A stretch of DNA of 64,000 bases from Bacteroidota bacterium (GCA_016124755.1 WGNA01000011.1:317211-381210), one strand, 5' to 3'; positions 5,033-56,085 are shown, numbered from the stretch's first letter. Made by a program: numbers and translations. Notes: a model not told the origin generated them from the sequence alone.

Positions 5033-5034
5033 TC

Positions 5035-5523: not shown

Positions 5524-5553
5524 AATCCAAAAATGGAGATGATCAATAAAGTA

Positions 5554-5569
5554 TGTGACAAAAGTCACA
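5554..5569. promoter_or_regulatory. Crp/Fnr-type operator palindrome TGTGAC-N4-GTCACA
   Basis: Perfect TGTGA-N6-TCACA box in intergenic DNA. Confidence 0.55.
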
Positions 5570-5598
5570 AAAGGTCGCGGTCTCCTTATTTTATCTGC

Positions 5599-5619
5599 AT
5601 CTTAACATTCTGTTAAGAT
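5599..5619. promoter_or_regulatory. Operator-like inverted repeat ATCTTAACA-ttc-TGTTAAGAT
   Basis: Perfect 9-bp arms with 3-nt spacer. Confidence 0.4.
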
Positions 5620-5679
5620 AATTTTTCGAAAAATTTTTAAGGAAGTATTGTGCAGTTTTCAGAATTGTACTTATTTCGT

Positions 5680-5761
5680 GAGTGCCTTTGAAAAGAGGCA
5701 ATTTTTTCATGGTTAGTTTGGTTTATTTGCCCTGCTCACTCTGAGTGGGGCTTCTTTTTTT
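5680..5761 (+). ncRNA. Candidate small RNA (5' hairpin, U-rich anti-start-codon tract, intrinsic terminator)
   Basis: GCCTTT-gaa-AAGAGGC-type hairpin, then TTTTTTCATGGTTAGTTTGG, then a terminator; no ORF. Confidence 0.4.
5729..5761 (+). terminator. Intrinsic terminator
   Basis: GCCCTGCTCA-ctc-TGAGTGGGGC stem followed by TTCTTTTTTT. Confidence 0.75.
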
Positions 5762-5819
5762 ATAAGGTTTTCGTTTTTTCAAACCTTTGCCAAGGTCAGA
5801 AGATTAAAGAAGAATAGGA

Positions 5820-36659: not shown

Positions 36660-37142
36660 TTATCGAGTGTTGTTGTGTTTTTTATTTTCTTTAATTACCT
36701 GCTTACGTACATCGCTAAAGTCACCTGTAAATCCTGCTGATGCTGCCTTCCAAAGGAATTTAACAGATTCTTTTTTGGTTCTTTTCAACTCTATCTTATT
36801 GATTCGATTAAAATCAATATTATTCATTAAGAATAATTGAAGATTGTTCAGAAATGTATCCCACAACTTGTCTTCAGCAATATTAACCGTTTGTCCTGTT
36901 GTATTTATATCGACATGAACTTTAACATTATTTTCATTTATGTTTACACTTGTTTTTGATTTCCACCTTAATGGATTAAAGGTAATAAAGTTAGTAAAGA
37001 TATTTCCACGACTAAATCTTAATTCATTTCTGCCCTCATAAGTCAATTCGAAGCCAGATTGCCTGAAGTATTCAATTATCTTTTTTTGAACATAAATTTG
37101 ACTACTTACTTGAAATTCAATATGTTTTACTAATATTTTCAT
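36660..37142 (-). CDS. Hypothetical protein, AT-rich
   Basis: 160-aa ATG-started ORF in very AT-rich DNA. Confidence 0.6.
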   Translation of the reverse strand: MKILVKHIEFQVSSQIYVQKKIIEYFRQSGFELTYEGRNELRFSRGNIFTNFITFNPLRWKSKTSVNINENNVKVHVDINTTGQTVNIAEDKLWDTFLNNLQLFLMNNIDFNRINKIELKRTKKESVKFLWKAASAGFTGDFSDVRKQVIKENKKHNNTR

Positions 37143-37248: not shown

Positions 37249-37324
37249 CTTTTTTAATTGATTCAAGTATGCCAACGTATTGAATGTCCGATGTCCTCGT
37301 CCAACTTACAATTCGTTTAGCCAT
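37220..37324 (-). pseudogene. Truncated RelE/ParE-like toxin (N-terminal ~21 aa)
   Basis: MAKRIVSWTRTSDIQYVGILE overlaps the antitoxin end, then reads into the repeat and stops. Confidence 0.65.
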
Positions 37325-37554
37325 TCAAGGTTTCGTTTATCCATCGCTTCCTGTGAAATCAATCGTCCGTTCTTTATATCCGCTTCGCTCATTTCGAGCA
37401 TTTCTTTCTGGTCAGCGGTCAGTTCTACAATCTCATTATCCGCAGAACTCGAAGAAATCAGACTGTCGAGTGCAATCAAAAAATCCTTATTCCGAATGGT
37501 CAGGATTTTATCAATCAATTCACTGCGTATTTTATCTACGGTTGCCATAGTCAT
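37306..37554 (-). CDS. Putative addiction-module antitoxin
   Basis: Small acidic protein with ELT..QK.MLEMSE.DIKNGRLISQE...EWL pattern; overlaps the toxin-like start. Confidence 0.75.
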   Translation of the reverse strand: MTMATVDKIRSELIDKILTIRNKDFLIALDSLISSSSADNEIVELTADQKEMLEMSEADIKNGRLISQEAMDKRNLEWLNEL

Positions 37555-37671: not shown

Positions 37672-39240
37672 TCACCAATAGCTACCCATTTCTTTTTCTA
37701 ATTGGCGAATCCACGCGTCGGTTATGCCAAGGGAATCCTGATTTACCCACGTGACTTTGCCGTACGTCGCATCGGTTAAGGTGAGTTCCGGAATCGATCC
37801 GCCGATGTATTCGCCTTTGTTTCCGGCGCGGGTTACAATGGTTGTGAGCCAGAAAAATCGTGTTTCGCCGGCGATGTTGCGGATAAACGGTCGAGACTCC
37901 GCCGGATAATTCTCAGACCAATCGTAATTCTTTCGGCTCTCCACAATCTTAGCCGGAACCGCGCTGCTGCCGATGTAAGAATGACTGTCTTTCCGGTGTT
38001 CAATAAAATAAATTTTACTGTCGGAATCACCCGGAATAAACAAACTCAGACTCAACCCTTTTTTCTCGGGTTGATAGGGTTCGAGTCCGAAGTAATTGCA
38101 AATTTTTCCGCCTTCCACATTCAGGAAAACCACGAATGGCTGAGATGCCGAAATATCGTCGGCAGCCGGAATGCGGATATCTCCTTCGTGATAACCCGGC
38201 ATTGGTGCAAAAAATCCGTTGGTAAACCGAAAGCTCTCGGCAATATTTCGGGCAACAACCGGCGGAATGAGGTTTTGTCCCTGAAGGTATTTATGCTGAT
38301 TTATTTCATCCGGAGCGATGTAATGTCCTGCTCCGAACAACACCCGATTTGCCCACGTATCCGATTCTTTTTTCTGATCAATTACCACAACTCCGCCGAA
38401 AACCGGACGCGGGAAAACCCAGCCTTTCCAACGAATCAACGGAACCACCTGAACCCATTCGCCCTTTTCGTTCTGCAAATACATCGGCTCGCTGGCTTCG
38501 TAGCTGAAAAATCGGGAAAGCGAAAATCCCCGCCGGATTGCATTGTCGGTTTCTTTTGAAAACAACAACAATTCTCCGATTTCAAAATTTACTTTATCGC
38601 GGTATTTAGCCGAAAAAACCGGAGCCGGTAAATGCGCCGGAATGCGAATCACTTCGTACATGTCTTTTCGCATTTGCTGAATGCGGTATTCTTTGCTCGG
38701 ACCCACAGCCGAACTGTAATAATACATGTCGTCTTTTCCCCGGATAAATTTGGGAAATGTTGCGTCTTCGGTTTCCGAAAGCGCTTCCTGATTAATTAAT
38801 GTTTTTAAAGAATGAACCGGCTGAATACGCTCGTGTCCTGTCTCGGGTAAGCCGTTTAAAATTACTTTATCCAGCTCACCGTAATACATATACAGTTTCA
38901 GATAATTGTGAACCGGCGGCCCAACAAAGATCATAAAAGCTAAAAAGGCCGAAATAAAAATAGTAGGTAAAATGCTGCCTTTAAACGTGCGTTTTCGGAT
39001 CACGCGCCAGTACCACGTCATCATTAAAAACACAAACAGAATTAACAGACTGTATTTGCGAATCCATAAAACGGCAGGTTGATACGATGCCCGGAAATAC
39101 AGTAGGGCGGCAACTAAGAGTATTAAAATGAGTGCCGAAATAATCTTGTATTTCTTAAATAGGTTGCCGATCGCGGTCGCAATTCCTTTTCGGATATTCC
39201 GGAAGAACCAGTATAAACGGTTGAATTCTGTTTCTGTCAT
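37672..39240 (-). CDS. Membrane protein, 3 N-terminal TM helices plus large soluble domain (operon gene 6)
   Basis: Three hydrophobic segments within aa ~30-110; ATGA overlap with upstream gene. Confidence 0.8.
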   Translation of the reverse strand: MTETEFNRLYWFFRNIRKGIATAIGNLFKKYKIISALILILLVAALLYFRASYQPAVLWIRKYSLLILFVFLMMTWYWRVIRKRTFKGSILPTIFISAFLAFMIFVGPPVHNYLKLYMYYGELDKVILNGLPETGHERIQPVHSLKTLINQEALSETEDATFPKFIRGKDDMYYYSSAVGPSKEYRIQQMRKDMYEVIRIPAHLPAPVFSAKYRDKVNFEIGELLLFSKETDNAIRRGFSLSRFFSYEASEPMYLQNEKGEWVQVVPLIRWKGWVFPRPVFGGVVVIDQKKESDTWANRVLFGAGHYIAPDEINQHKYLQGQNLIPPVVARNIAESFRFTNGFFAPMPGYHEGDIRIPAADDISASQPFVVFLNVEGGKICNYFGLEPYQPEKKGLSLSLFIPGDSDSKIYFIEHRKDSHSYIGSSAVPAKIVESRKNYDWSENYPAESRPFIRNIAGETRFFWLTTIVTRAGNKGEYIGGSIPELTLTDATYGKVTWVNQDSLGITDAWIRQLEKEMGSYW

Positions 39241-39767
39241 TTGTCGAGGAAGTCTTTTACGCCTTTTCGCCAGTCGTCACCTTTGTCTTTATCATCCTTT
39301 TTATCACTGTCGTCTTTTTTCTGCTCCTCTGGTTTTTCATCTTTCGACTCGATGGGAATCGTTACATTTTTATCTTTTATAGATTGTTCTATTTCGTCAA
39401 TTCGCTCAATGGTATTTCGAATTTGCTTTATCTGCGGCTGAACGGATTTAGTAAAAAACGGAAATAAATAAAAACTCAGCATCATACCGATCAGCATGAG
39501 CGCCAGATAAAGTAATAATTCAAAAAAATTAATATTACCGGCTACATAAAATAACCATCCGATTGCCAAAGTCATGGTTACCGCCGGAACCAATCGTTTC
39601 GAAAAAGGTTGCTGAAACAAAAAAGTATGTTGAGAATCTTCCGGCAATCCGTCTTTGTGTGTGAGTTTGTACCACGACCGGTACCAGAATAATCCGCGTT
39701 TACGGTCGAAAAATGCAAATGCAATCCCGACAATTAAACCAACAAGAAGAGGAAGTAATGTGCCCAT
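39237..39767 (-). CDS. Small 3-TM membrane protein with charged C-terminal tail (operon gene 5)
   Basis: Start MGTLLPLL; three TM segments, short coiled coil, K/D-rich linker, terminal DWRKGVKDFLDK helix. Confidence 0.8.
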   Translation of the reverse strand: MGTLLPLLVGLIVGIAFAFFDRKRGLFWYRSWYKLTHKDGLPEDSQHTFLFQQPFSKRLVPAVTMTLAIGWLFYVAGNINFFELLLYLALMLIGMMLSFYLFPFFTKSVQPQIKQIRNTIERIDEIEQSIKDKNVTIPIESKDEKPEEQKKDDSDKKDDKDKGDDWRKGVKDFLDK

Positions 39768-39778
39768 AGTAATGCAAT

Positions 39779-41044
39779 CTATTGAGTTATCTGCTGAAAA
39801 ATAAAACGGTGTTCTAAAATGGTTTCCACTGCCCACTCCTGAAAATCCTCTTTCCATTTTCCGTATTCGGCATAAAATCCGGATTTGTCGAAAAGGTATT
39901 TTATCACAACATCGTTATCGTGTTTGCAGGCGAGCAAATGCCATAATACAATTTTATCGTTTTGGTTAAGGTGTGGCGCGGGATACAAAAGATCTTCTTT
40001 TATTATTTCCGGAATTTCAAACGTTTGCCGGTTTTTGATTTTTAAAACCAGACGTTCCAATTCAAAATATTTATCATTTAAAAGCGATTCGGAAACAGCG
40101 GCTTGTACCAGCATTTTCGTATGTGTTCTCTCATTGTTACCGGTTGGAATCAGTTTTTTGAGATTTCGACAAGCTGACATCAGCATCGTCATCATTTTTA
40201 ATTCAATTAAATACGGATGTCGAATATAAAAATCAGCGTCGTTTTCGAGCAGGCCCTGTTCGGTTAAATAGGGGAGGAGCCCGTTATCGCTCAGATTAAA
40301 CTCCATCTGGTCGTGGTGTTTTTCTCCGCTGATTTCAGATGAATTATTTTTAAAAACCAGAAGCGGTCTTTTATTTTTTAGATTTCTGAAAACATACAAA
40401 CCATCAAATGCCAGCGTATAAAACGATAAATAATTTCCAAACGGAATCGATCGCAATTCAATGGAGCGATATCGCAGATCACCGAATTCGTTGCTGCTGT
40501 TGATGATGGCTTCCCGCAGTTTCGCATCGGCCCACGCATTTTCTTCCACCATAAATTTGTGAATGAGATTGCGCTGTTCCCGGGCCGCTTCCATTATTCG
40601 GTCAACCGTATTAAAATGAATCGTAAACACGTCGATCATCAGTAAATCAGCCGGATGCCGGTATGCCGAAATCTCCTGATCGAGTTCAAACCAAATGGCG
40701 CTTTGTGTAGTAATGTCTGTTATCTGTTCACCGTATTCACTGAAAATTCGTTTGTGAACATCCCAGTCGAACGTGTGAAACGGATGATAAATAGAGGCGT
40801 TTTGCTGTTCCGGACTAATAATAATTCCATACGGATTTGCCATGCCGTGCGACAGATAAAACGTGTTTTTCTGTTCTTCCGCAACTTCCGGACTCCAGCC
40901 CCAGCCGTCGATGTGGAAAGATTTGAGTTGGGTTTTTTCTAATCCGATATCGGCTAAAGCAGAATTGTACCGATCCACCATCAGTGATGTTTTCACCGGA
41001 ACGAGCCGGTTTCCGAACAAACCCGATTCAATTAGTCTAATCAT
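39779..41044 (-). CDS. DUF6638-like protein (operon gene 4)
   Basis: Start MIRLIESGLFGN overlaps the ATPase stop. RYN.AL...T.L..FHIDG.G.SPE pattern recalled from DUF6638; not verified by search. Confidence 0.65.
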   Translation of the reverse strand: MIRLIESGLFGNRLVPVKTSLMVDRYNSALADIGLEKTQLKSFHIDGWGWSPEVAEEQKNTFYLSHGMANPYGIIISPEQQNASIYHPFHTFDWDVHKRIFSEYGEQITDITTQSAIWFELDQEISAYRHPADLLMIDVFTIHFNTVDRIMEAAREQRNLIHKFMVEENAWADAKLREAIINSSNEFGDLRYRSIELRSIPFGNYLSFYTLAFDGLYVFRNLKNKRPLLVFKNNSSEISGEKHHDQMEFNLSDNGLLPYLTEQGLLENDADFYIRHPYLIELKMMTMLMSACRNLKKLIPTGNNERTHTKMLVQAAVSESLLNDKYFELERLVLKIKNRQTFEIPEIIKEDLLYPAPHLNQNDKIVLWHLLACKHDNDVVIKYLFDKSGFYAEYGKWKEDFQEWAVETILEHRFIFQQITQ

Positions 41045-42995
41045 GAATTCTTCCGGATCGTAATTCTTCTGAAGCTTTCTGTTGAATATACAAGCGTTTT
41101 GCCGTTTCCCGAATTTCCCGTTGCATGCCGGTTTCATTAATCCGGATGGCGTTTTCAATATAATTTAATGCCTCGTACAACCGGATGTCGGTAAACGTTG
41201 CGCCCCGCATATTTTCCTTCATTAAAACTTTTAGCATTTCCGCTTTTTCATCATACGATTTAAAAAAGAAATCGTCGGGATTTTCCCACCAGATTTCGGG
41301 AAGATCGAAGTCGATTATTCGAGCGTCAACTGCTTTTTGAATATTTCTCAAATCTCGCGAAGAGAAAAACGGATATTGATTTAAAACGGCATTATAAAAT
41401 GCTCCGAAGAAATCCTGCGACTTCGGATCGAAATCTTTTTCGGCTTTTTTATAAATCCCTTTAATGTCGGAATTCGTGAATTGAAATTCTTTATTGACTA
41501 ATTCACCAATAGTTTCCGGTTCTTTTTGCGCATCCATATAATGATACGTTCGCGGATCGCTGGCATCGATAAATTTATCGTCGAGTTCACTGTATTTCTT
41601 CCACCACAAATAATCCTGATCGATAAAATCTTCGGGTGACGTGGCGCCGTTCATGGAAGCGCGCATCTGAATCCGGGATAAAACCGCTTTATCAACCTGA
41701 TCGGGAATATTGGTGAAAAGCGAAATCAAACGGTTTCCGTAATTGATGGCGTACGCACCTTCGGTATTCCGCAGAAAAACGCCGATAAATTCCCGAACGC
41801 CGGCCGATACACCTTGACGGGTTCGTTCTTCTAAATTGTTTTCTGCGTCATCAATGGGAGCGAAGATGATTTTTCCCGGATCCTGCATCGGTTTAAACCA
41901 CTCCATTGCCCGCTCGGCCGTTCCGCCCTGATAAGTCGAAACGATGTTTTCGGGAAGTGGCCAGAACAAAAACGGATAACCCAATTGCTCGCAGCGTTCT
42001 TCGAGAATGGTTGCCGTTGCTGCGATGAGCATACTTTTTCCGGTTCCGGGTTTGCCGTCGGCCATAGTGATGGAAGGCAATCCGCCCAACGCATTCATCG
42101 GATTTTTCTTCGCTTCAAAATCATAACAAAGCATCCGCTCGGCGTATCGCTTAAAGAGGTGCTTTGCCTGTTTGTTCGCCACAATGTCTTCCATCCTCGT
42201 GGGGTTGAAAGCCATTCCTTTAACCGAAACCGAAATCTGCTGATCAAATCCCTGAACGGTGAATTCCTCACCTTCGAGTTTGTAATGATTGTTCGTAAAA
42301 ATATCGGCGTATTTCAGAGCTTCACGGCGCATCTGAATTTCTTCTGCAAGTCGTTCGAAATACAAAGAAGTAATGCGCAATAAGTGCAGATCGGTGTTAA
42401 TGATTCCGGATCGTTCGAGATACGCTGCGTAATAATACAGCGAACATTGAATCGCTTTCGAAGGCCGCGTTAACGACACTTCGGGTATTCCACTAAAGTC
42501 AATATTGATGGAAGATTGTTCGTCTTCCTGAATGCTTTTTACTTTAAAAGCGATGTACGAAGCGGCGGTGTAGATGAGAATTGCCGACTGGGTTTGTGAC
42601 TTGTCGTGAAATTCGGGAAGGTCACTTTGATAAAGATTTCCGTCTTTATTTTTTTGCTGAAGAAGCTCTAACCCACTCGAAGTTCCATACAAATTCGAAA
42701 GATATTTTCCGATGCAATAACCCCGTCGAATTGCATTGAGAACCTGGTTGCAAACATTCGATAAAATTACCCGGTCGTCGCTGATGCGAACTGCATTTTT
42801 TAAAACCGACAACTGATCTTCCTCATTCCCGAGTGCTTTGGAAGCCTGGGTTAAAAAGGTAAGATCGATTTCTGATTTGGAAGATTTCCGGTCGGGCATC
42901 CAACCGACGGTTTTGAGATAGCCGGTGACTTCCTCGCGGAATTCGTGCAGGTTTTCGTTGCGTATTAGTAATAATGACGAATCATTCTTCTCCAT
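41037..42995 (-). CDS. AAA+ ATPase, classical clade (operon gene 3)
   Basis: Walker A GKPGTGKS, pore-loop IVSTYQG, Walker B IFAPIDDAE, sensor-1/SRH FTNIPDQVDKAVLSR, lid FSSRDLRNI. Confidence 0.9.
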   Translation of the reverse strand: MEKNDSSLLLIRNENLHEFREEVTGYLKTVGWMPDRKSSKSEIDLTFLTQASKALGNEEDQLSVLKNAVRISDDRVILSNVCNQVLNAIRRGYCIGKYLSNLYGTSSGLELLQQKNKDGNLYQSDLPEFHDKSQTQSAILIYTAASYIAFKVKSIQEDEQSSINIDFSGIPEVSLTRPSKAIQCSLYYYAAYLERSGIINTDLHLLRITSLYFERLAEEIQMRREALKYADIFTNNHYKLEGEEFTVQGFDQQISVSVKGMAFNPTRMEDIVANKQAKHLFKRYAERMLCYDFEAKKNPMNALGGLPSITMADGKPGTGKSMLIAATATILEERCEQLGYPFLFWPLPENIVSTYQGGTAERAMEWFKPMQDPGKIIFAPIDDAENNLEERTRQGVSAGVREFIGVFLRNTEGAYAINYGNRLISLFTNIPDQVDKAVLSRIQMRASMNGATSPEDFIDQDYLWWKKYSELDDKFIDASDPRTYHYMDAQKEPETIGELVNKEFQFTNSDIKGIYKKAEKDFDPKSQDFFGAFYNAVLNQYPFFSSRDLRNIQKAVDARIIDFDLPEIWWENPDDFFFKSYDEKAEMLKVLMKENMRGATFTDIRLYEALNYIENAIRINETGMQREIRETAKRLYIQQKASEELRSGRIHD

Positions 42996-44097
42996 GTTGT
43001 CGGGTATAGATGTATGGCGGTATCGATAATTTTTTGAGTTCTTCCGGGAAGCTCGAATTGAGGTGTTGCAGAACTCTGTGCGATGTGATCATGTACCGGA
43101 AAACCTTCGACACCATGCGGTCGATACATTCTTTATTCGCATCATCAACATAAAAAATCTGGCGCAATTCTCCTTTTGATAAAAAGCTTCCGGACTTTCG
43201 TTCGCCGGTTGAAAAAATCAGTTCGCTTTCGTAGGTGAAAATAAAATCATCGCGTTCAAATTCATCTTTCAACAGTTTCGTGAACGGATGTTCATCCATG
43301 GAATAATGCCCGTAAATCGGGCCGAAACCGGTGCGCTTCAGAATTTTCGGTTTAATGGATTCCCAGCCGTTATCGATGTCGGAAGCGATCACTTTCAACG
43401 GCGCTGAATTGTGGGTGATGTGCCGGATGTTCTCTTCGAAAAACTCCGAGAGTTTGTCTTCCGAGCGATTAACTTTTCCGGCCATCGGGTTGTCGAATAC
43501 CAACAGATAAACAAACGGACGGTTGGTCACCGAATCGAATGAAGCCCAACTGTACATAAACCGTCGGGTTTGTTCGGCATCGTTCAGATTTTTTATGAGT
43601 TGAAGTCTACCGGGAGAAAACTCGGTGAAGTGCGATTTTTTATAGAGATCCGTGTAATACTGAACCCGGCTCATTTGCTTTAACAGATTTTGCGGATGAG
43701 TTTTATTGCGGATGAGCGTATCGAGGATTTCATTTTTTAAAGAACCGGCTGCCGGAAGATCGTGGAGTTTTTCCTGTCGTTTTTCGATGTCGTCGTTCAG
43801 CCGTTTGAATTCCAGAAAATTCGGAAAGCCTGATTCGGTGGTGTCGACCAACATGGGCTGATCTTCACTAAAAGCGTATTTCATCCCGAATGCTTCGATC
43901 GTGTTCAAAAACCGTTGGGCAAAATCCTGTAACACCGAAATCTCGTACGGATTATCGCTCTGGATTTGCGGAATGGAACTCAGCAGCGAGTTGAGGGCAA
44001 ACCGAACATATTCGAAATAATCTTCGTATGCATTGTCGCCCACCAGAACACTGCGGTCGTATTCGGTGAAGTGATTCGTTATGTCGATCGTTTTCAA
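42982..44097 (-). CDS. Conserved hypothetical cytoplasmic protein (operon gene 2)
   Basis: 371-aa ORF, 14-nt overlap with the ATPase, no TM segments. Confidence 0.8.
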   Translation of the reverse strand: MKTIDITNHFTEYDRSVLVGDNAYEDYFEYVRFALNSLLSSIPQIQSDNPYEISVLQDFAQRFLNTIEAFGMKYAFSEDQPMLVDTTESGFPNFLEFKRLNDDIEKRQEKLHDLPAAGSLKNEILDTLIRNKTHPQNLLKQMSRVQYYTDLYKKSHFTEFSPGRLQLIKNLNDAEQTRRFMYSWASFDSVTNRPFVYLLVFDNPMAGKVNRSEDKLSEFFEENIRHITHNSAPLKVIASDIDNGWESIKPKILKRTGFGPIYGHYSMDEHPFTKLLKDEFERDDFIFTYESELIFSTGERKSGSFLSKGELRQIFYVDDANKECIDRMVSKVFRYMITSHRVLQHLNSSFPEELKKLSIPPYIYTRQHGEE

Positions 44098-44111
44098 GCC
44101 GGGCTCGACTT

Positions 44112-45485
44112 TCAGTCCATCAGGTTGTCAACCGAATCGTTACCGGATTTTTTGTTCTCCGGTTCCGGAGTCGGTTCGCCGCCGTCGCTTTCGTAATTAA
44201 AGGAGAAGGTTTCGCTCACATCGATTCCGAATTTACGGCTGTGCTCTTCCATAATTTTAGCGTCCTGCTCTTTGTATTTTGCGGTAGCTTCGGCCATGGC
44301 AACGAGAACTTTGTGAAGCTCGGCCATTCGCTCCGGTTGTTTTTTGATGCGTTGAATTCGGTCTTTTTCTGAACCCACAAACACCTTGGCAGCGATCTCG
44401 GTAATTTTCTGATCGGTCTTCACACCGGCTTCTTCATAAATGGAAGCCGCTTCCTGAGCCGTTGCGGATTGAATCAATTGCAAACCGGATTCATAAGTGG
44501 TTACCCTTTCTTCGGTGTCGCTTCGAAGCTGACCGATAAGTTGTTTGAGGTTGTTTTTGGTAGTGGTTTGCGCTTCGAGGTGAATTACAATCTGATCCAC
44601 AAAACGCTCTTTTGATTGGAATATACCGAGGGCCACGTTGTATTTGCCCTTGAGTTCGGCGCGCTGTTCACGGAGGTCGGCGATCTTTTTTTGTTGAGCG
44701 GTGTATTCCGGACTGTTGTTCGGCAATTCGATGAGTTCGTTTTCGGAAGTTTTGAGTCGCGCTTCGAGTTCGTCGAGTTCCTTTTTGCGCTCTTCCATTA
44801 TTCGGGCGGCTTTCTCTTTGGTTTCGAAAGCGAGTTCCTTCCGGTTTTTGAGAGCATCGATCTGCACCTCCACTTCGAGAATCATGTTCTCAACGATGGC
44901 CACCATTCCCTGAACCTGAGAAATAATCCGGTTGAGAGATTCCCCGATATCGGCATTTTTCAGCCTGTCGCGGTAACGTCGGTTTGCTTCGGCTTCGGCA
45001 GCTTTAAGCGCTTCCACTTTCGCTTCGAGTTCCGCTTTGGTTGAACGCACTTTCCGGTTTTTATATCCAAAGAGGATGTTCCAAGCGTTCGACATTTTGG
45101 TTGCGTCTTCGGCTTCTACTTCGGCTCTCTGACGCGCTTTGGTTGCATCCTGAACGAGTTTGGTTTCAGCGTCGTTCAGCTCCTGAAGTTTGGAAAACTC
45201 ACCTCCGCAACTGTCGAGCATAGCTCTGAGGTGGAGCATAAGTTCCTGAAGATCGGATTCGGTTTGATCTACATCTCCGTTGAGCGACTCGAAGTTCGAG
45301 TTGATTATTCCGGAAATAATGTCTTCAGAAGATTTGTTGCCCTGGGCTGCTTTTTCAATTTCAGCTTCAATTTTGTCGAGTTTGCTGACTACGCTTTCAC
45401 CCTTCTTTTTCTCGATCCGGGCTTTGAGTTCGGTAACTTTTTTGTCGTTGCCGAGTTGGTCGAGAAGATCAAAAGAATCTGCCAT
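44112..45485 (-). CDS. Long coiled-coil protein (operon gene 1)
   Basis: E/K/A/Q/L-rich helical sequence throughout. Start set at MADSFDLL because the track's TTG lies inside the -7 promoter element. Confidence 0.85.
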   Translation of the reverse strand: MADSFDLLDQLGNDKKVTELKARIEKKKGESVVSKLDKIEAEIEKAAQGNKSSEDIISGIINSNFESLNGDVDQTESDLQELMLHLRAMLDSCGGEFSKLQELNDAETKLVQDATKARQRAEVEAEDATKMSNAWNILFGYKNRKVRSTKAELEAKVEALKAAEAEANRRYRDRLKNADIGESLNRIISQVQGMVAIVENMILEVEVQIDALKNRKELAFETKEKAARIMEERKKELDELEARLKTSENELIELPNNSPEYTAQQKKIADLREQRAELKGKYNVALGIFQSKERFVDQIVIHLEAQTTTKNNLKQLIGQLRSDTEERVTTYESGLQLIQSATAQEAASIYEEAGVKTDQKITEIAAKVFVGSEKDRIQRIKKQPERMAELHKVLVAMAEATAKYKEQDAKIMEEHSRKFGIDVSETFSFNYESDGGEPTPEPENKKSGNDSVDNLMD

Positions 45486-45509
45486 CGTTTTTACGGTTGT
45501 TGTTTGTGC

Positions 45510-45517
45510 CAAAAGTA
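45510..45517 (-). promoter_or_regulatory. Bacteroidota -7 element of the six-gene operon
   Basis: TACTTTTG 24 nt upstream of ATG 45485. Confidence 0.6.
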
Positions 45518-46248: not shown

Positions 46249-49200
46249 TCACCTATTGCTATCATAGTATTCCCATCCTGTGCCCTTACCATAATTAAAG
46301 TAGTAAGAGCCGAATAAAGGAAACAGGTCAATACTGTTCCTCCAAATCACTTCGTCGGAATTATAATTAATCTCACTAATATGAATTTTCTGTTGCAGGT
46401 ATCCGGTTTTGTATATGTCAGGTGTTTCCAGATGAGTCATTCCATCTGGTGCACACGAATTTTTAATGGCAGATATAGCTTCTAAATTTCCCTGATACCA
46501 AATTCCAATTTTATGATCATTATGATATTCTCCGGTTTCGGTTAAACGCCCCTGAGCATCGTAATAAAACCAAATTCCATTCTTTTTGCCATTTAGAATG
46601 GTGCCTTCTAATCTACGATTTCCGTTGTCATAATATTCATATACTTTACCGGAATTGTTTGTGATCAATTCTTTTCCGGTAGCATCCCACATGTTCAGAT
46701 AAAAGATATTTTCGAAACTCACATCCAGATCCAAATTGCATTGATATTGTTGAAAGGCAGAAAGCACCAATCCTTTTAATGACATGTTGCCATTGGGATG
46801 CCAGGCGGTTATTTTCCCATAATATTTGATAGAGTCTCCATTAACCGGGTTGAAATAAATTCCTGTGGAATAATCTATTTCTTTTAAAGGCCCACCGTTT
46901 ATATCCCAGTGTTTCCAGGTGCCTTTTTTATATCCATTACTAATTGTTCCCTCTGATGCTTTTATTCCGTTTTTGTAATAGAGAACATATTTTCCATTCT
47001 GTGTGTCATCGAATTGAAGTAAGCCATATTCTTCATTCAAAGAATTAATAAAAATAAGTTCTCTCAGGTCTTGCTTTAAAACAATGGGAAACTTTTCCGG
47101 GTTTTTATGGGTTTCAATAAATTCTTCTTCCAAATAAATGAGATCTGAATTCTCAAAATTAAATCTAGAGTCATAGTCATCACAAAATCCATTTATAAAT
47201 ATTGAGTGACCTGCGTAAAAAGCACTGTCCGCAATGCTATATACTACTTCGGCTTTTAATACTCCGGTTGAATAAAAATAGCGCACGGTATCAGTTAAAA
47301 ATCCATTTTCAATTCTTGCGGAAACCATGGTGTCGTCCAATCGGTTGCAGTACCAATATCTGCCTTGTGGAATGCCTTTATTTATAAATACGGATCCCCT
47401 TTCTTGGTAGGGAGTTCCGTACCATTTTAACCAGCCATCAACCGTGTCCTTGTGATAGTTTGTTTTGTAATCGATCTGACCGTTATTGCTAAATTTAATC
47501 CATTCTCCATCCAGTTGATTTCGTGTATAAGTGTTCAGGGAATACAGATCACGAAATGTTCCGTGCTTCTGCCCGTTCACATACGCACAACTGAATGTAA
47601 ACAAATTGGTAGTACCGTTACGCTTTTGATTTGAATAATGAACATAGTATTTCTCTTTATCAGTAAAAAATACAGATTCAACCAATCCGTTTTTTACAAA
47701 CAGGCGATAATTTACCGGATAGAAAAAAGCGTGATTTTTACAAATTTTCACATTTAATTCTAATGTGCTGGGGTTGGTTAGTACCATGGTGTAGGTCATT
47801 TCTGCTTCACTACTCTCAACAGTACTCAGATTAATGATTCCGGAAAAGGGTTTACCTTTAAGCCATATTTCATAGTTCAGTGTGTCAGCAGGTTGATATA
47901 GAATGCGGGCATGATGTAATACATGATCATATCTATTTGGATAAATCTTGCCCGGTTGGGTTTTTATTAAATACGAATAACGAATGCACAATTCATGATT
48001 TTGATCCCAATCATTAATTGTGACTTCCAAATTCGAAGTGAGGCTGTCTGAACGTCTATAGTTGAAATCTCTGCAATTTATCCCATTGTAAAAATTGTCA
48101 TAGAAGCCCAATCCTGAGTGAAGTACGTAATTGAATACCTTTCGATGTGAAAGTAAGTGGTTTGATCGATTATATTTTCTATCGGTAGAATTTGGGGAAT
48201 TCAGTTGGACTATGCCTATGCTATCGGGATATTTTAAATCCCAATACGACAGTTCCGAAGCATATTCACCGGATTCAGAAGAAAATAGCAGATTGCGATA
48301 TAAATACACTTTGGTTTTCTGAATCTCTTTTTTACCCATAAAAGTTTTTCTAAATTCTGTTGAATTCATGGTAAACAGATGTTTATCTATGTCTGAACCA
48401 GCGGAACTGAATTGAATGGTTTGATAAATTGATCCATTCTTTCTGTAAAAATGTATTGGGTTTAGCGTGTCGGAAGTTCTGAAATCATATTTAAATTCTA
48501 ACCGACCGTTTTTATGATATCTTGCCATAACAAGATTATCTGACCAGCTACTATTTATTGAAGCATTGGAAGCAAATATTTGACTATACAGGCAATTATT
48601 CCCTCCGTTCATTCGATATTGTTTTAAACTTCCGTCGTTGTGCCAGAAATATTCGTAACGATTAGAATCAGCACAATCAAGCGCTATCATCACGCCCTTT
48701 TTATTAAAACGGATGAATGTTGTGTCTTTTAATTGCGGAGTATGAATCGTTTTTATTTTTCCATTTTTGAAATAACTGATTTCTTTCATACTTAACTGAA
48801 CAAATTCGGTTTTCCCGTTCCTACTTGTTACCGTCGCAGTATCATAGAAAGATTCTTTCAAGATTCTTCCTTTCTCATCATATTTGACCAAACGTCCGTT
48901 AATAAATCCATCAGAAACATCGCATGAATAAAGGATGTGTTGTTTGTAGGTGAGCGTCATTGATCCATTAACAGTATCCGAATCGTAATGATAACTTAAG
49001 ACATATTTGTCGTGGAATATTTTCCAATCACCTGTTTTACGGTCACGATCGTATTGTCCGCTTTGAATTAGTTTCCCATCTTGATCATACCATTTAGCCG
49101 AACCGTTTTTCAAATTATCCCTGAAAGAAACTATTGCTGCGATGTGTGTTGTGTCCTTTTGTTTAATTCGCTCTTTAGCACCTGTTTTGCGAGCCTTTTG

Positions 49201-49458
49201 ATAATAAATAATATAATCTCCGTCGGGCATTATAAAGGGGTTGTAAAACAAATTATGCTCAAACTGAAATTTTAGTCCAGTTGTGTAATTAAAATTCATG
49301 GTTTCAATACCGCTGGTGAACCATGGTTTGACACGTGCCGGATAAACAGAATATTCAATCCCCTGAAATTTTGCTTTTGGAATAATCAACTGTGCCCGCA
49401 CCACTTGACTATTGAAAATAATTGAAAGGATAAAAGTGATGCGGATTGCCCTGATCAT
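46249..49458 (-). CDS. Large exported MORN-variant/YwqK-repeat protein, paralogue 3
   Basis: Signal peptide MIRAIRITFILSII; repeats such as YYKNG..ASEG...NG.KKG.W; collinear with the other two paralogues. Confidence 0.8.
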   Translation of the reverse strand: MIRAIRITFILSIIFNSQVVRAQLIIPKAKFQGIEYSVYPARVKPWFTSGIETMNFNYTTGLKFQFEHNLFYNPFIMPDGDYIIYYQKARKTGAKERIKQKDTTHIAAIVSFRDNLKNGSAKWYDQDGKLIQSGQYDRDRKTGDWKIFHDKYVLSYHYDSDTVNGSMTLTYKQHILYSCDVSDGFINGRLVKYDEKGRILKESFYDTATVTSRNGKTEFVQLSMKEISYFKNGKIKTIHTPQLKDTTFIRFNKKGVMIALDCADSNRYEYFWHNDGSLKQYRMNGGNNCLYSQIFASNASINSSWSDNLVMARYHKNGRLEFKYDFRTSDTLNPIHFYRKNGSIYQTIQFSSAGSDIDKHLFTMNSTEFRKTFMGKKEIQKTKVYLYRNLLFSSESGEYASELSYWDLKYPDSIGIVQLNSPNSTDRKYNRSNHLLSHRKVFNYVLHSGLGFYDNFYNGINCRDFNYRRSDSLTSNLEVTINDWDQNHELCIRYSYLIKTQPGKIYPNRYDHVLHHARILYQPADTLNYEIWLKGKPFSGIINLSTVESSEAEMTYTMVLTNPSTLELNVKICKNHAFFYPVNYRLFVKNGLVESVFFTDKEKYYVHYSNQKRNGTTNLFTFSCAYVNGQKHGTFRDLYSLNTYTRNQLDGEWIKFSNNGQIDYKTNYHKDTVDGWLKWYGTPYQERGSVFINKGIPQGRYWYCNRLDDTMVSARIENGFLTDTVRYFYSTGVLKAEVVYSIADSAFYAGHSIFINGFCDDYDSRFNFENSDLIYLEEEFIETHKNPEKFPIVLKQDLRELIFINSLNEEYGLLQFDDTQNGKYVLYYKNGIKASEGTISNGYKKGTWKHWDINGGPLKEIDYSTGIYFNPVNGDSIKYYGKITAWHPNGNMSLKGLVLSAFQQYQCNLDLDVSFENIFYLNMWDATGKELITNNSGKVYEYYDNGNRRLEGTILNGKKNGIWFYYDAQGRLTETGEYHNDHKIGIWYQGNLEAISAIKNSCAPDGMTHLETPDIYKTGYLQQKIHISEINYNSDEVIWRNSIDLFPLFGSYYFNYGKGTGWEYYDSNR

Positions 49459-49523
49459 TGATGTTTTAGCTGAACTATGTAGAAAGAGGTGGGGAGTAAT
49501 AAAGGTCTTGAAATTTACCATTC

Positions 49524-52500
49524 TTAATACCGATAGCCATTCGATTCAATATAATAATAATCTCCATACAACGGAAGCAGCCTAAAACTTTGCTGGTTGA
49601 TAATGTTTCCATTGACATAAATGTATTGAACAATATGAATGGGTTGTGTAATATAACCTGTGGATTCGGCATCCGGGAAATACGGCGGACTGATTTCGCC
49701 TTTCATGCACCGGTCGTAATAATGCGGAACAGCTTCCAGATCACCGGCTAACCAAGTTCCTGTTTTAATTCCGTTTATGTAATTACCTACTTCCTCTAAC
49801 CTGCCGTCGGGATCGTAGAACTTCCAAAGACCGTCCCGTTTTCCGTCTTTTATTTCCCCCTCTAATCTGCGGTTTCCATTGTTGTGAAACTCGTAAACCC
49901 AACCGTTGTTATTGTGAAAAGTTTCTTTTCCGTTTTCATCGAAAAGTGAAAGATAAAAGAGATTTTCAAGCGAAATATTCATTTCACGTTCACAACGAAA
50001 TTGTTCAAATTGAGAAGTGATTAATCCTTTTAGAAGTGGTTTTCCGTTCGGGTACCACATCTCAATTTTTCCATAGTAATCAATGGTGTCGCCGGTATTT
50101 GGATTTACATAAATTCCAGTGTCATACGTAATCGTTTTTAACCTGCCTCCATTCAAGTCAAAATGTTCCCATGTGCCGGTTTTAAATCCGTTTGTCACAT
50201 TTCCATGGGAGGCCAATACACCGTTTTTATAATAATAGAAATATTCACCGGAATTGTTAGGGTCGAAGCTGATGAATGGCTTATTAAGATATTGATAGTT
50301 GCCGTCAAAACTTTTTAGGTCGCCGACTAAATGACGGTAATATACCGGCTCCAATACACCAGTTTTGGCGGTACTTTTATAGCTCTGAAATCCCCTTAAA
50401 AAAGCATTTTTCCCGGCAAAAAATACACTATCTTTTTGGCAGTACAACACTTTGCATTTAACTATACCTTCGGAATAAAAATATAAAGCAGTATCAACCA
50501 AATATCCGTGGTTTAATTTAGCCCAAACAGAAGTATCGTTAACAACTCCGCCATACCAGTAATAACCATGGGGTAGGCCCATGTCGATATAAACCTTTTC
50601 TTTCAGTTTTCCGGGCGTATGGTATTTGTAAAACCAACCATTTAAGGTGTCACGGGTGTAATAGGTTTTAACCTCAATCTGATCGTGTAATACGGCAAAA
50701 CTCCTTCTGCCCTGTGGTGACTTTACTTCCGAATGCAGATCATACTTTATGTACAATCCATTTAATTTCCCGCTGTCGTATTCCATTAATTCGCCGGAAG
50801 ATTTGCAGGTTCCCTGTTTTACTCCGTGATCGTAATAGGCTTTTATCGCGTTCGGTGGATTGCCTATAAATGTTCCGTTCAACGCCGAATTATCGTAACC
50901 AATTTCACCCTTAAATAAGTTAGAAGACATGAATTTCAGATAGCCATTGTCAATTGTAAAATGGCTGGTTATTAGTTGATCGGTGAGTTCATATTCTCTT
51001 CCTGCAACCAGATTTAAGTTAACCAGATTGTTCACACCAACAACATAAGAAACAAAGGTTCCGGTTTCTGTTACCTTCATTAATTTGATTTTGTTGCTCT
51101 TAGAACGTTTCGTGGCACTGCTATAATCAATAGTCCCGTTTAATGGTTTTCCATTGTATTCAAATCGGAAATCGGGTCGTAATGGAATGGTATTAAGTGA
51201 CCGGCCTTTTAAAGTTTCCGGACTTGTCACAAACATTTTTTCCGGATTAGCCTGAATGGAAAATTGATGAATAAGACAGAATTTCTGATCGTCACTGTAC
51301 TCCCTTTGGGTAATATATATTTTGTTGGAACCTGAAATAGAATCAATGGTGAAAGTAGTGAGTGGCAGAACTGCTCCTTTTTTATCTAAGTAAAACAATT
51401 CTCTGGCAACAAAATCCGTATGCAACAGATATAACTCCCGACTTAATACTCTTCTTTTTTTATTTCTTTTTAACTCTTTAAATCCATAATGGTCGGGATA
51501 TGTTAGATTTAGAAATGTTGGGGACAAGATGGTGTCCGATCGGCCAAGACTATCATAGTTTACAGTCAGAATCGGGTAACCGGATTCCAGAAATACTTGT
51601 TCCTTTGATAGATATTTTATCTTTTGATTTGATTTTGCAGGTGAATAAACTTTAAATGCAGATAGCTTAAATATATAGATATCGTCCTTTTTATTAAAAT
51701 GGATGAGCTCAAATTTCGCCGGTTCATCATAAGGCGGGAGGGAAAATATTATTTTTACAGGTAAGGTGTCTGTCGTAAAATCATATTCCGAGGTGATGCG
51801 ACCATTCTTATAATTAATTTCCTTCAGGAAGGTGCTGTTTTTAGAAATCTGTTTAGTAAACCACCTGTGGAATTGCTGTTTCAACGTATCTTTAAAATCT
51901 GTCGAAGGTTCATTTGATGTTCTGGCTGAATAATATTGAAGGGTATCATTCGATATGATCTCTTCGTACCGAATGGTATGCGATGGATTAAAATACGATA
52001 AATAACATATCTTGCCCGTATTGCTGAACAAGATATCAACGGTGTCTTTTGTAGGCGGATATCGCACTGAACTTTTATTCCCGTTTATAAAAAACGTGGA
52101 TTTAGCAGGACAGTCAATACAAGAGCCATCATAGACTACAAGAGCCATCATCCGTTTTTGGTCGTCAAATTGATATCCATCTCCGGTTTTTATGCCGTTT
52201 GTGTATGTGCCATATTCAAAAAGTATATCTTCAAAATAATTAAACCACATGCCATGAAGTAAATCATTGTGGTAATGATATATTAAATGAAATTGGTTAT
52301 TAATTATATTCCATTCTCCTGTTTTTTTATCATTGTCGAAATGGCCGGTTTGGATTATCCCTCCTCTATCATTATACCAGATAACCTCACCGTTTCTCTG
52401 ATTGTCTTTAAGGGAAAAAAGAATGGCAACAGTCAGGGTATCATATAGGTATTCCGATTTAGAACCTATATGATAACCAATATACTCTCTGAACTTTTGA

Positions 52501-52799
52501 TAGTAAATAACATACTTCCCATCCGGCACGCTAAACGGATTGAAACTTAGCTTTAATTCCTGGTCAATCATTGTTGCGTAACGTGACGAACCTGGATAGT
52601 TGTACTTGTAGTCTTTTATGTATTGCTTTCCATTCCAATTAAATCTGGGTAATCTGGCGGGATATACATTTACCTTTTCCCCGTGAAAATACACCTGTGT
52701 TACCGGCATTTGGGCAAACAGGTTATTTTTAGAAATGCAGCACAAGCAAAGAATAAAAATTGAGTAAATAAGATTTATTCTCAGTTTGATGAATTTCAT
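49524..52799 (-). CDS. Large exported MORN-variant/YwqK-repeat protein, paralogue 2
   Basis: Signal peptide; EFHNNGNRRLEGEIKDGKRDGLWKFYDPDG. Confidence 0.82.
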   Translation of the reverse strand: MKFIKLRINLIYSIFILCLCCISKNNLFAQMPVTQVYFHGEKVNVYPARLPRFNWNGKQYIKDYKYNYPGSSRYATMIDQELKLSFNPFSVPDGKYVIYYQKFREYIGYHIGSKSEYLYDTLTVAILFSLKDNQRNGEVIWYNDRGGIIQTGHFDNDKKTGEWNIINNQFHLIYHYHNDLLHGMWFNYFEDILFEYGTYTNGIKTGDGYQFDDQKRMMALVVYDGSCIDCPAKSTFFINGNKSSVRYPPTKDTVDILFSNTGKICYLSYFNPSHTIRYEEIISNDTLQYYSARTSNEPSTDFKDTLKQQFHRWFTKQISKNSTFLKEINYKNGRITSEYDFTTDTLPVKIIFSLPPYDEPAKFELIHFNKKDDIYIFKLSAFKVYSPAKSNQKIKYLSKEQVFLESGYPILTVNYDSLGRSDTILSPTFLNLTYPDHYGFKELKRNKKRRVLSRELYLLHTDFVARELFYLDKKGAVLPLTTFTIDSISGSNKIYITQREYSDDQKFCLIHQFSIQANPEKMFVTSPETLKGRSLNTIPLRPDFRFEYNGKPLNGTIDYSSATKRSKSNKIKLMKVTETGTFVSYVVGVNNLVNLNLVAGREYELTDQLITSHFTIDNGYLKFMSSNLFKGEIGYDNSALNGTFIGNPPNAIKAYYDHGVKQGTCKSSGELMEYDSGKLNGLYIKYDLHSEVKSPQGRRSFAVLHDQIEVKTYYTRDTLNGWFYKYHTPGKLKEKVYIDMGLPHGYYWYGGVVNDTSVWAKLNHGYLVDTALYFYSEGIVKCKVLYCQKDSVFFAGKNAFLRGFQSYKSTAKTGVLEPVYYRHLVGDLKSFDGNYQYLNKPFISFDPNNSGEYFYYYKNGVLASHGNVTNGFKTGTWEHFDLNGGRLKTITYDTGIYVNPNTGDTIDYYGKIEMWYPNGKPLLKGLITSQFEQFRCEREMNISLENLFYLSLFDENGKETFHNNNGWVYEFHNNGNRRLEGEIKDGKRDGLWKFYDPDGRLEEVGNYINGIKTGTWLAGDLEAVPHYYDRCMKGEISPPYFPDAESTGYITQPIHIVQYIYVNGNIINQQSFRLLPLYGDYYYIESNGYRY

Positions 52800-52809
52800 A
52801 ATACTGAAA

Positions 52810-55800: not shown

Positions 55801-56085
55801 TTTTTGGTAATAAGCGATGTACCTTCCGTCGTCGAGAGGAAAAGGATTATACGGCAGAGTTTTCTCGTATTTTAATCCACTGCCGTAATAAGGTGAGTCA
55901 CCGAGTTCGTCACCAATCGTTTTAGCGCTGTAACCATATTCGGCTTTTCCGCCGGGTAATCGTGCAGGATATACTTTAACCGTTTGCCCCTCGAAAGTGG
56001 TGAGTACGGTTGGCATTTGCGCATATAGGTTGGTGAAAAATAAGAAAGCGAAGAATGTGTTAAAAAGGCGTTTTATCGAATTCAT
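52810..56085 (-). CDS. Large exported MORN-variant/YwqK-repeat protein, paralogue 1
   Basis: Signal peptide ending LYAQ; EFHNNGERRLEGNIKDGKRVGLWKFYDPEG. Confidence 0.82.
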   Translation of the reverse strand: MNSIKRLFNTFFAFLFFTNLYAQMPTVLTTFEGQTVKVYPARLPGGKAEYGYSAKTIGDELGDSPYYGSGLKYEKTLPYNPFPLDDGRYIAYYQKRVRKIDRHTYKPKYSHEDTTLVAVKFEIQNERKNGKATWYNDKGEIIQTGDFKDDVKVGDWAIIRDDYVLKYHYENGLLQGKMIHTYKNVVLSEINYNRGFKMGTFNYFNEKGRLISKYTYDTTQSPRYLSTGESYVKTNSIVKESRVYNKKGIITYHKYPFENDTISTSFFKKGEKKYVGIRTSDSLFHYINWYKNGQLRSDRYERHRDQDTSQEYLDSVALIEVFNEVLNEDGDVVKLVRYFKDGKLKYQYDFAKGGLNQNVTVNDKKGKPRKTVKVISAPGDTSYWVEEKWIGVQTIRLDYSKIKKTTDAIRVHEYSGNYSIHFSYTDKKGYLYLRSSQSYLQHLYPDSIGPVLSYWKQSKKRDNKTYILLNTNKEIHTIKTKGIVYQEAEFQKSDTLERTTDVTLKQWDKKHDLCIVHQYQIKADSGKVYRGSSTNIINQTILSSPDTIDYKIYYHNLPFNGKLIVNDVWRRRKWMMKSKYSKHLSDYINTVVKVKTRFPSNSEGDFSYCSIQTANGEVQTINGGYWSSDKIDYIDGTKNGETSINGVTGFYDLGKKNGLFQNYDKFQEYYEDTLHGSYIDFGYYTENGKIDRQINVRTNYTLDTLNGWFYKYASPNLFKEKIYIDHGLPNGDYWYGNVGCDTLVSAKIKNGFLYDTARYYFSEGVLKAMCIHQLEDSEFYAGRYIFKDGYYVNRSKTKTTGYYYNSYSDYAEIASATSRSNRILGDLSSYNNLHNYIEKPMLNFNPNRTGEYTYFYKSGVKASHGCVENGFKTGTWEHWDLNGGKLKTIEYDSGIYINPDNGDTVRYYGTITQWYPNGALLLKGYITSQFTQFRCDQEMEVSFENLFYLNMWDENGKELLVNNSGAIYEFHNNGERRLEGNIKDGKRVGLWKFYDPEGRLENIGTYKNGKADGLWVSGDLEAVPHFYDRCLKGELQPYSLPDAEAQGYITEPVKISEYMYKDGEYISSNTVMLIPLYGEYRGHYNHLYLDF

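Follow-up and report, generated by a model that had tools for sequence, protein, structure and literature searches.

A six-gene operon conserved across bacterial phyla encodes a classical-clade AAA+ ATPase, a long helical protein and two predicted membrane proteins

We describe here a six-gene operon found in a 64,000-nucleotide (nt) stretch of DNA from a Bacteroidota bacterium (GCA_016124755.1, WGNA01000011.1:317211-381210), hereafter the window, whose positions are counted from its first letter. Six open reading frames (ORFs), all on the minus strand and termed g1 to g6, fill positions 37672-45485, their limits being set by ORF calling and by aligning their starts with those of homologues. 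Given that the order of these genes is conserved in distant groups and that they match no described system, they probably encode an unknown cellular machine. Our preferred reading, which we put forward tentatively, is that the six genes form one self-contained, hitherto undescribed machine that sits on the inner membrane's cytoplasmic side and is driven by the classical AAA+ ATPase (ATPase associated with diverse cellular activities) g3, and that its most likely role is maintenance of the envelope or membrane.

Conservation of gene order was examined by a pattern scan of 185,579 genomes, one per species, in which 425 loci encode a relative of g4; the best 80 of these were taken for analysis of their neighbourhoods. 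Profile searches with the six proteins found g1 to g6 in order in 61 of the 62 loci among these best 80 that have enough flanking sequence on both sides, and protein identities among the conserved-order loci fall to about 25-40%. Such clustering lies far outside what chance would give. The loci make up 22 lineage groups at under 60% g4 identity; Bacteroidota, Desulfobacterota, several Patescibacteria lineages and a metagenome-assembled genome (MAG) labelled Gammaproteobacteria are represented among them. A first-pass annotation of the window had proposed that genes 1 to 4 also cluster in other Bacteroidota, which proved correct: in two distant Bacteroidota genomes, homologues of g1, g2, g3, g4 and g6 lie in the same order at 27-41% identity.

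The first four genes are also found together further afield. Sinorhizobium meliloti has g1 (362 amino acids), g2 and g3, then a DUF559 gene and an insertion sequence (IS) element, then g4 and a DUF2333 gene; Vibrio vulnificus has g1-g2-g3-g4 followed by mfd; and the same core is present in Sinorhizobium/Shinella. Alignment of profiles by hhalign matched the S. meliloti homologues of g1 and g2 with probabilities of 98.4% and 99.9%. The operon is built on an ancient four-gene cytoplasmic core, g1 to g4, whose order is conserved from Bacteroidota and Patescibacteria to Rhizobiaceae and Vibrio, and this core is trailed by differing membrane modules, namely g5 and g6 in the window and DUF2333 or nothing adjacent elsewhere.

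At a larger scale the distribution is patchy. DUF6638 (PF20343), the family to which g4 belongs, was matched in 4 of 401 sampled Bacteroidota genomes; at closer range, matches were found in 17 of 191 genomes of the window's order, 16 of 65 of its own family, none of 125 of the sister family and 5 of 28 of one genus. This patchiness is one point in favour of a different explanation, that the operon is an anti-phage or abortive-infection system in which the AAA+ complex senses infection and g5 and g6, or DUF2333, act as membrane-disrupting effectors. The spread of the operon over at least five phyla, its self-contained form, the variation of its membrane module by lineage and the presence of extra genes within some copies (NUDIX, D12 methyltransferase, DUF559 with an IS element) all point the same way.

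Several searches argue against such a role, which the first-pass annotation had offered as one possibility, and we consider it unlikely. None of the six proteins matches a PADLOC model (PADLOC-DB v2, 2023) below E=0.009, the best matches, Cas8a (E=0.0098, g5), DruB (0.013, g3) and IetA (0.019, g3), being at noise level; nor does NCBIfam yield anything for the six. In the window the operon is flanked by a type IX secretion system cargo protein, a Crp-type regulator, a rhodanese/metallo-beta-lactamase protein and three tandem MORN-type paralogues. Of the Pfam families found in the 120 nearest flanking ORFs of the 22 lineage groups, none recurs more than three times (the nuclease-type families RNase_T and RNase_H_2 occur twice each), and integrase, transposase, restriction, toxin-antitoxin and mobile-element families are all missing from the 25 flanking families listed out of 143. 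There is no relative in 50,697 phage records or in IMG/VR, and the matches in plasmids, 10 of 72,556 records, all fall on non-mobilisable replicons of 0.88 Mb or more. Furthermore, inheritance of the locus is stable, and its neighbours are conserved, in many genera of Flavobacteriaceae and in Sinorhizobium/Ensifer species. With the S. meliloti protein as query, 1,563 of the candidates scored were relatives at E<=1e-10; the 120 relatives listed belong to Sinorhizobium/Ensifer, Rhizobium, Pararhizobium, Shinella and close kin. The alphaproteobacteria seen here are thus Rhizobiaceae, the first-pass annotation having named Rhodobacterales. Patchy at large scale yet stable within some clades, this distribution is more in keeping with an accessory cellular function than with a defence island of fast turnover.

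The protein that would drive the machine is g3 (41037-42995, minus strand, 652 amino acids), which consists of an unassigned N-domain of about 290 amino acids, one AAA module and a long lid or C-terminal region. It matches Pfam AAA (PF00004) over residues 314-446 with 34.0 bits against a cut-off of 21.2 (E=4.8e-8), and its homologues from S. meliloti and Vibrio score 41.8 and 50.1 bits. Aligning 27 sequences shows Walker A (GKPGTGKS, residues 314-321) to be invariant at G314, P316, G317, T318, G319 and K320. The pore loop, STYQGG at about 353-358, has the family form ST(Y/F)QGG with Q356 and G357 invariant, while the stretch spanning sensor 1 and the second region of homology, FTNIPDQVDKAVLSRIQMR, is invariant at N429, D435, S440, R441 and R445; by comparison of motifs we take N429 to be sensor 1, and R441 and R445 to be the arginine fingers. 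The canonical Walker B motif is hhhhDE with a catalytic Glu. That of g3 is a variant, IDDAE (DD-x-E, 382-385, with D382, D383 and E385 invariant in the 27 sequences), in which Asp stands in place of the usual Glu, with a further acidic residue two positions on, so that the hhhhDE pattern does not fit.

Searching the PDB with the g3 family profile returned Cdc48 D1, AFG2, VAT, NVL, Rpt4, p97, Vps4B and NSF at E 2.8e-9 to 8e-6, the closest solved relatives of g3 being unfoldases and disassemblases. All of these matches are confined to the AAA core (profile positions 259-450), the same search giving no PDB match for the N-domain or the C-terminal part. Pfam yields AAA alone at E<=0.1, with neither an MIT nor a Vps4_C domain. 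To judge by these motifs, g3 is a classical-clade AAA+ protein whose catalytic and substrate-engaging elements are conserved, and it looks active; the pore loop, second region of homology, variant Walker B and N-domain had all been picked out in the first-pass annotation.

The partner proposed for this ATPase is g1 (44112-45485, minus strand, 457 amino acids from an ATG start). It has no transmembrane segment by hydropathy, and it is all-helical, in line with the nearly continuous coiled coil of the first-pass annotation: an AlphaFold2 model (predicted local distance difference test, pLDDT, 69.3) places residues 6-419 in helices, with low-confidence ends (residues 1-12 and 426-457, pLDDT below 50). 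The hydrophobic patch AWNILFGY lies at a turn between helices at about 130-141 and is followed by basic residues, giving a Trp/Phe-plus-basic tip, SNAWNILFGYKNRK, at about residues 132-145, whose aromatic and basic character is conserved across phyla in an alignment of 25 homologues. Two short conserved motifs, DSFDLLDQLG at the N-terminus and VDNLMD at the C-terminus, are not conserved outside Bacteroidota.

It had been suggested that g1 might be kin to PspA/Vipp1/ESCRT-III or to TelA, and our searches do not bear this out. No Pfam, NCBIfam or PADLOC family lies above cut-off. Snf7, PspA_IM30 and TelA (PF05816) are all missing from the Pfam families listed (25 of 59) for the 25 homologues at E<=1; Snf7 and PspA_IM30 are likewise missing from the five Pfam matches of the window's own g1, and no ESCRT-III or PspA chain is among its 35 PDB sequence matches at E<=10. 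Comparing the g1 model with the PDB by Foldseek gave nothing at E<=1e-3 (best E 0.067), and we dismissed F-BAR domains, alpha-pore-forming toxins and colicin Ia as generic long-helix matches. The matches found by VIA-align, MSP1, MukF and syntaxin (top Z 12.9), were dismissed on the same grounds; by the tool's own account, a helical model learns nothing from a Z below about 13. The hairpins of CHMP4B and Shrub were matched to residues 216-333 of g1 with Z of 9.9, 9.3 and 9.2, values at which that measure says nothing either way. There is a weak resemblance to the coiled coil of SipB, with T3SSipB matched in 3 of 25 homologues (best E=1.4e-4) and PDB entry 3tul at E=0.012.

The elongated bundles among these look-alikes (MukF, syntaxin, an SMC coiled coil and F-BAR, at Z 10-13), generic as they are, would be in keeping with g1 forming filaments turned over by the AAA+ protein, as a cytoskeleton-like scaffold for shape, division or a compartment with no special link to envelope stress. 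Retention of the operon in very small Patescibacteria genomes would suit such a role. We nevertheless hold it to be very unlikely, given that all of the structural matches of g1 fall within the range that the tool states to be noise for helical models, and that only a small minority of genomes in any sampled group carry the operon, which argues against a basic cell-biological role.

Predicted structures cover g1 and g4, and complex prediction covers one pair, residues 1-275 of g3 with g1. For this pair the median ipSAE was 0.36, against 0.00 for the best of three controls, a result that the method itself terms 'weak support'; at least 90% of contacts agree between runs, and partner pLDDT is at least 61. 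In calibration, the mark used was reached by 58 of 80 solved complexes and by 2 of 110 mismatched pairs, and at scores of 0.60 or below by only 7 of the 80 solved complexes together with both of the passing mismatches. For an interaction between the ATPase and the coiled-coil protein, as expected in the first-pass annotation, the prediction thus gives weak support.

Less can be said of g2 (42982-44097, minus strand, 371 amino acids), which is cytoplasmic, has no transmembrane segment and belongs to no known family. Its alignment of 27 sequences has 15 invariant columns. These 27 members give no consistent Pfam match at E<=1, a profile search found no PDB relative with E below 0.05, and the 57 homologues are all unnamed or 'hypothetical', none with a Pfam family. 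Feature-based searches of the ESM Atlas with g6 and with a homologue of g2 brought up 'hypothetical' clusters and, beyond these, only a lead to YagK/YfjJ that scored below 0.9 and that we distrust.

A family can be named for g4 (39779-41044, minus strand, 421 amino acids, single-copy in the source genome). As the first-pass annotation had proposed, it is a member of Pfam DUF6638 (PF20343), with 127.7 bits against a cut-off of 27 (E=7.3e-37) over profile positions 1-395 of 439. Its AlphaFold2 model is of high confidence (pLDDT 88.6, predicted template modelling score 0.85) and has an alpha/beta N-terminal half, which carries the motif DGWGWSPE, and a helical C-terminal half, with no transmembrane segment. 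This model had no match in the PDB by Foldseek at E<=1e-3 (best 0.77), a best Z of 4.6 by VIA-align over 48,161 chains and no match in BFVD, although at 421 residues a single-domain match could escape these structure searches; nor does g4 have a PDB sequence relative with E below 0.01. The term 'DUF6638' is absent from the searchable literature.

By hydropathy, three transmembrane segments are predicted in each of g5 and g6 and none in g1 to g4, in keeping with the first-pass annotation of genes 5 and 6 as membrane anchored. The three segments of g5 (39237-39767, minus strand, 176 amino acids) are accompanied by a basic cytoplasmic loop, identified by charge counts and alignment, with the conserved motif YR-W-Y-LTHK, and by a long, charged cytoplasmic tail that ends in DWRKGVKDFLDK. 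Its ATG at 39767 was picked by alignment of homologues, an alternative start being at 39857, and its position between g4 and g6 is conserved. It has no relative in Pfam, NCBIfam, PADLOC or the PDB. In g6 (37672-39240, minus strand, 522 amino acids), for which alignments of 28 and 69 sequences were made, the three segments are N-terminal and precede a conserved domain of about 400 amino acids rich in Pro, Gly and Trp. By the positive-inside rule, this domain would lie outside the cytoplasm and the g5 tail inside.

The g6 family is small, with 307 representative clusters at E<=1e-3 among 1.84 billion, and its homologues are also named from Verrucomicrobiota and Bdellovibrionota. We found no Pfam match (28 homologues, E<=1), none in NCBIfam or PADLOC, and no PDB relative, even with the wider profile. 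Two of the 150 listed g6 representatives, P0363 and P0399, are g5-g6 fusions, their g5-like N-terminal parts having E of 1.6e-13 and 1.3e-6. The existence of such fusions indicates that g5 and g6 act as one membrane unit.

The position behind g4 is taken by DUF2333 (PF10095) in S. meliloti and in a Yonathbacteria MAG (Patescibacteria), which represent unrelated lineages; the family was not found in the 301 Bacteroidota genomes searched. We rejected the idea that g6 is a divergent DUF2333 protein, as hhalign gave a probability of 0.6%, or 2.2% with a 75-sequence profile. The S. meliloti gene SMc02733, to judge by its locus tag, presumably lies in that species' copy of the operon. A fragment bound by ChvI was mapped inside SMc02733 (PMC3687685), which may be a weak lead towards the envelope. 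A second lead, also weak, comes from PMC5256989, in which a DUF2333 gene of a Pseudomonas fluorescens strain stands between a peptidoglycan amidase gene and a NUDIX gene; in a clade of Flavobacteriaceae, too, the operon has a NUDIX gene, placed between g3 and g4.

The presence of dedicated polytopic membrane proteins, one with a large domain predicted to lie outside, raises another explanation, that of protein translocation, membrane insertion or extraction, in which the AAA+ protein would thread g1 or other clients to or from g5 and g6 (compare EccA of type VII secretion, Bcs1 and Msp1). A classical AAA+ with a pore loop is suited to this, the short conserved motifs at both disordered ends of g1 could be recognition signals, and g1 has its sub-threshold likeness to the coiled coil of SipB, a type III secretion translocator. 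However, g5 and g6 together have only six transmembrane segments and do not resemble any known channel, the membrane module is missing next to the core in some lineages, the terminal motifs of g1 are restricted to Bacteroidota, and matches of the SipB type are typical coiled-coil noise. We therefore judge translocation to be quite improbable.

Returning to a machine for envelope or membrane maintenance, the parts may be put together as follows. A g3 hexamer, using its pore loop and ATP hydrolysis, would engage a disordered end of g1 and would disassemble or remodel a g1 assembly, which would itself contact the membrane through the Trp/Phe-plus-basic helical tip. As adaptors or cofactors of g3 we would propose g2 and g4, whose genes overlap that of g3 and may thus be translationally coupled to it. 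The complex would be docked by the cytoplasmic loop and tail of g5, and the outside domain of g6, whether sensor or effector, would couple it to the cell envelope. Its working principle would be like that of Vps4/ESCRT-III or NSF/SNARE, without membership in either family. The first-pass annotation had envisaged a membrane-remodelling, envelope-stress or defence machine; of this, the conserved, unassigned operon that joins an AAA+ protein to a helical protein and membrane proteins has stood, whereas the kinship of g1 and the defence role have found no support. That the ATPase recycles a coiled-coil polymer is a reasonable inference and not a finding.

A number of observations weigh against this reading. 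Sequence, profile and structure searches detect no kinship between g1 and any polymer-forming membrane remodeller, and the predicted contact between g1 and the N-terminal part of g3 is weak, a pass of this kind being more often wrong than right unless the interaction was likely beforehand. In g3, the Walker B motif has DD rather than DE, so that ATP may be hydrolysed with unusual kinetics; in the pore loop, Gln takes the place of the hydrophobic residue of classical AAA proteins, and in one clade the aromatic residue of the loop is replaced by Leu. The topologies of g5 and g6 are drawn from hydropathy and the positive-inside rule only. Neither is the membrane module universal: Desulfonema magnum, the one exception among the 62 loci, has g1 to g4 only, and V. 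vulnificus has no adjacent module. Finally, a Desulfobacterales contig (L040) has g4 without g1 to g3 within 9.8 kb upstream.

The layout of the operon is compact. A gap of 14 nt separates g1 and g2, g2 and g3 overlap by 14 nt, g3 and g4 overlap by 8 nt, a gap of 11 nt separates g4 and g5, and g5 and g6 overlap by 4 nt, so that the six co-oriented genes and their junctions are as first annotated. The promoter box that had been reported ahead of g1 was also located: TACTTTTG, of the form TAnnTTTG, lies at 45510..45517 on the minus strand, 24 nt upstream of the g1 ATG, and we take it to be the Bacteroidota -7 promoter consensus. A longer, TTG-started g1 ORF would begin within this box. Of 17 related loci examined, counting the window itself, 12 have TAnnTTTG at 32-46 nt ahead of the g1 start, which fits a conserved promoter, and the other five (L023, L025, L028, L035 and L036) lack it. 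Among sequencing runs, the one listed as containing the locus is the probable source sample, and no RNA run is listed. Upstream of g1 in S. meliloti Ak57 (L089, 2540-2600) we see a sigma-70-like CTTGTC-N17-CTTTAT, and a GGAAC-type general-stress promoter is not visible there.

Some copies of the operon are interrupted. In S. meliloti Ak57, a gene for a DUF559 endonuclease domain and an ISRm16-family transposase split it between g3 and g4 (L089, 7060-8895). Throughout one Flavobacteriaceae clade (L054-L088, L007 and genome G191), a NUDIX gene of about 195-205 amino acids lies between g3 and g4; it was recognised by Pfam at E=3.2e-10 for L007 and by 31 further phmmer matches (30 fetched loci of the clade and G191), with a strict canonical NUDIX-box pattern matched in only 3 of the inserted ORFs. 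In G191, where the insert lies at 19272-19856 of L008, an insertion of about 8 kb with a 1490-amino-acid ORF (C5, about 122700-130770; L008 11213-19272) parts the NUDIX gene from g4. We had considered G191 as a variant with g4 to g6 only, which was ruled out since g3 lies upstream at 131853-133799, the operon being split by the insertion of about 8 kb. One Flavobacteriales MAG has a D12-class N6-adenine DNA methyltransferase gene and a 278-amino-acid ORF between g3 and g4 (L026, 7851-9817). In one long-read MAG, g2 and g3 form a single ORF of 1028 amino acids (L027, 6915-10001); given that the two genes are only 1-2 nt apart in sister MAGs, this may be an assembly indel and not a true fusion.

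Smaller ORFs of about 100-118 amino acids stand between g4 and g5 at L056 11321-11677 and, similarly, in L057, L065, L068, L070, L072, L074, L075, L077 and L083. The one tested matches the '23S rRNA-intervening sequence protein' family (E=3e-29). Small variable ORFs also occur between other operon genes in the same Flavobacteriaceae clade. A gene for an ABC-F type ATPase lies 64-2095 nt upstream of g1 in L054-L088, L007, L025 and L049, which comprise a Flavobacteriaceae clade together with single MAGs of Flavobacteriales and Yonathbacteria, and its proximity to g1 is possibly coincidental. Upstream of the g4 homologue in L040 lies a pair of ORFs (about 141 and 156 amino acids) duplicated in tandem (4211-7430).

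In the window, three tandem paralogous ORFs of 1090-1091 amino acids lie directly upstream of the operon (46249-56085, minus strand). The first matches the MORN_2 repeat at E=6e-9, the second has no Pfam match at E<=0.001, and the third occupies 52810-56085. Just downstream of g6 are ORFs of 82 amino acids (37306-37554, minus strand) and 160 amino acids (36660-37142, minus strand) without a Pfam family; we left these outside the operon because no flanking family recurs across lineages.

Membrane-acting multi-protein AAA+ machines (ESCRT, NSF, Cdc48, FtsH and PspA-linked) hold a central place in cell biology, and to our knowledge bacteria have yielded few of them. Here we have a complete and compact operon found across phyla. 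No function has been assigned to five of its six proteins, and for one or more of these a structure is confidently predicted that has no solved look-alike. Whatever role proves true, be it envelope maintenance, defence or transport, it would assign DUF6638, probably DUF2333, and several unnamed families. As the operon is present in S. meliloti and in culturable Flavobacteriaceae (Algibacter, Winogradskyella), its function is directly testable by genetics and biochemistry.

Comparison with known systems gives partial likenesses only, and the g1-g6 system appears to be undescribed. Two Pfam families come into the comparison, DUF6638, of which g4 is a clear member, and DUF2333, which follows g4 in S. 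meliloti and the Yonathbacteria MAG; as both are of unknown function, membership explains nothing. In the portion of a comparative-genomics paper on the phage shock protein system that we could consult (PMC11237479), other AAA+/PspA neighbourhoods are given and not that of g1 to g6. The TelA/Ter systems likewise have an all-helical cytoplasmic protein of about 400 amino acids encoded with membrane proteins, but 25 g1 homologues give no PF05816 match at E<=1 and the operon has no Ter-family genes.

Other likenesses are found on the side of the ATPase. The best matches of the g3 AAA module are Cdc48, p97, VAT and AFG2 (E 2.8e-9 to 1e-6), with which it has Walker A, sensor 1 and the second region of homology in common, and for which cofactors are encoded or recruited separately, as for g3. 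However, g3 has one AAA module and not two, its Walker B is DD-x-E and not DE, and its N-domain is not detectably similar to that of Cdc48 (no match outside 259-450). NSF, which is among the weaker matches of g3, dismantles a membrane-anchored helical bundle via adaptors, and syntaxins are among the look-alikes of g1 at Z 12.2 and 10.8, within the stated noise range. Unlike the NSF/SNAP/SNARE system, g1 has no transmembrane anchor and no SNAP-like protein was identified, while NSF has two AAA rings.

The remaining comparison is with Vps4/CdvC and ESCRT-III. Here too there are differences: g3 has no detected MIT or Vps4_C domain, and Vps4B aligns with it over the AAA core only (positions 314-450, E=5e-6); no g1 homologue matches Snf7 or PspA_IM30, as would ESCRT-III, PspA or Vipp1, and g1 is about twice the length of an ESCRT-III protein; and g2, g4, g5 and g6 have no counterpart there. 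Set against these, both systems have a single-ring classical AAA+ protein with a substrate-binding N-domain, encoded beside a helical protein that is elongated, has disordered ends and probably binds membranes through part of its surface. By analogy, a plausible principle for the operon would be ATP-driven disassembly of a helical assembly at the membrane. A bolder form of this idea, which we regard as possible if doubtful, is that the operon follows the ESCRT-III/Vps4 principle as an analogue, ancient and without homology to it. We would then have a new prokaryotic membrane- or envelope-remodelling machine, common to Patescibacteria, Bacteroidota, Verrucomicrobiota, Desulfobacterota and Proteobacteria, and made up of a divergent AAA+ protein, a new helical protein with a membrane tip, g2 and g4 of new fold, and lineage-specific anchors.

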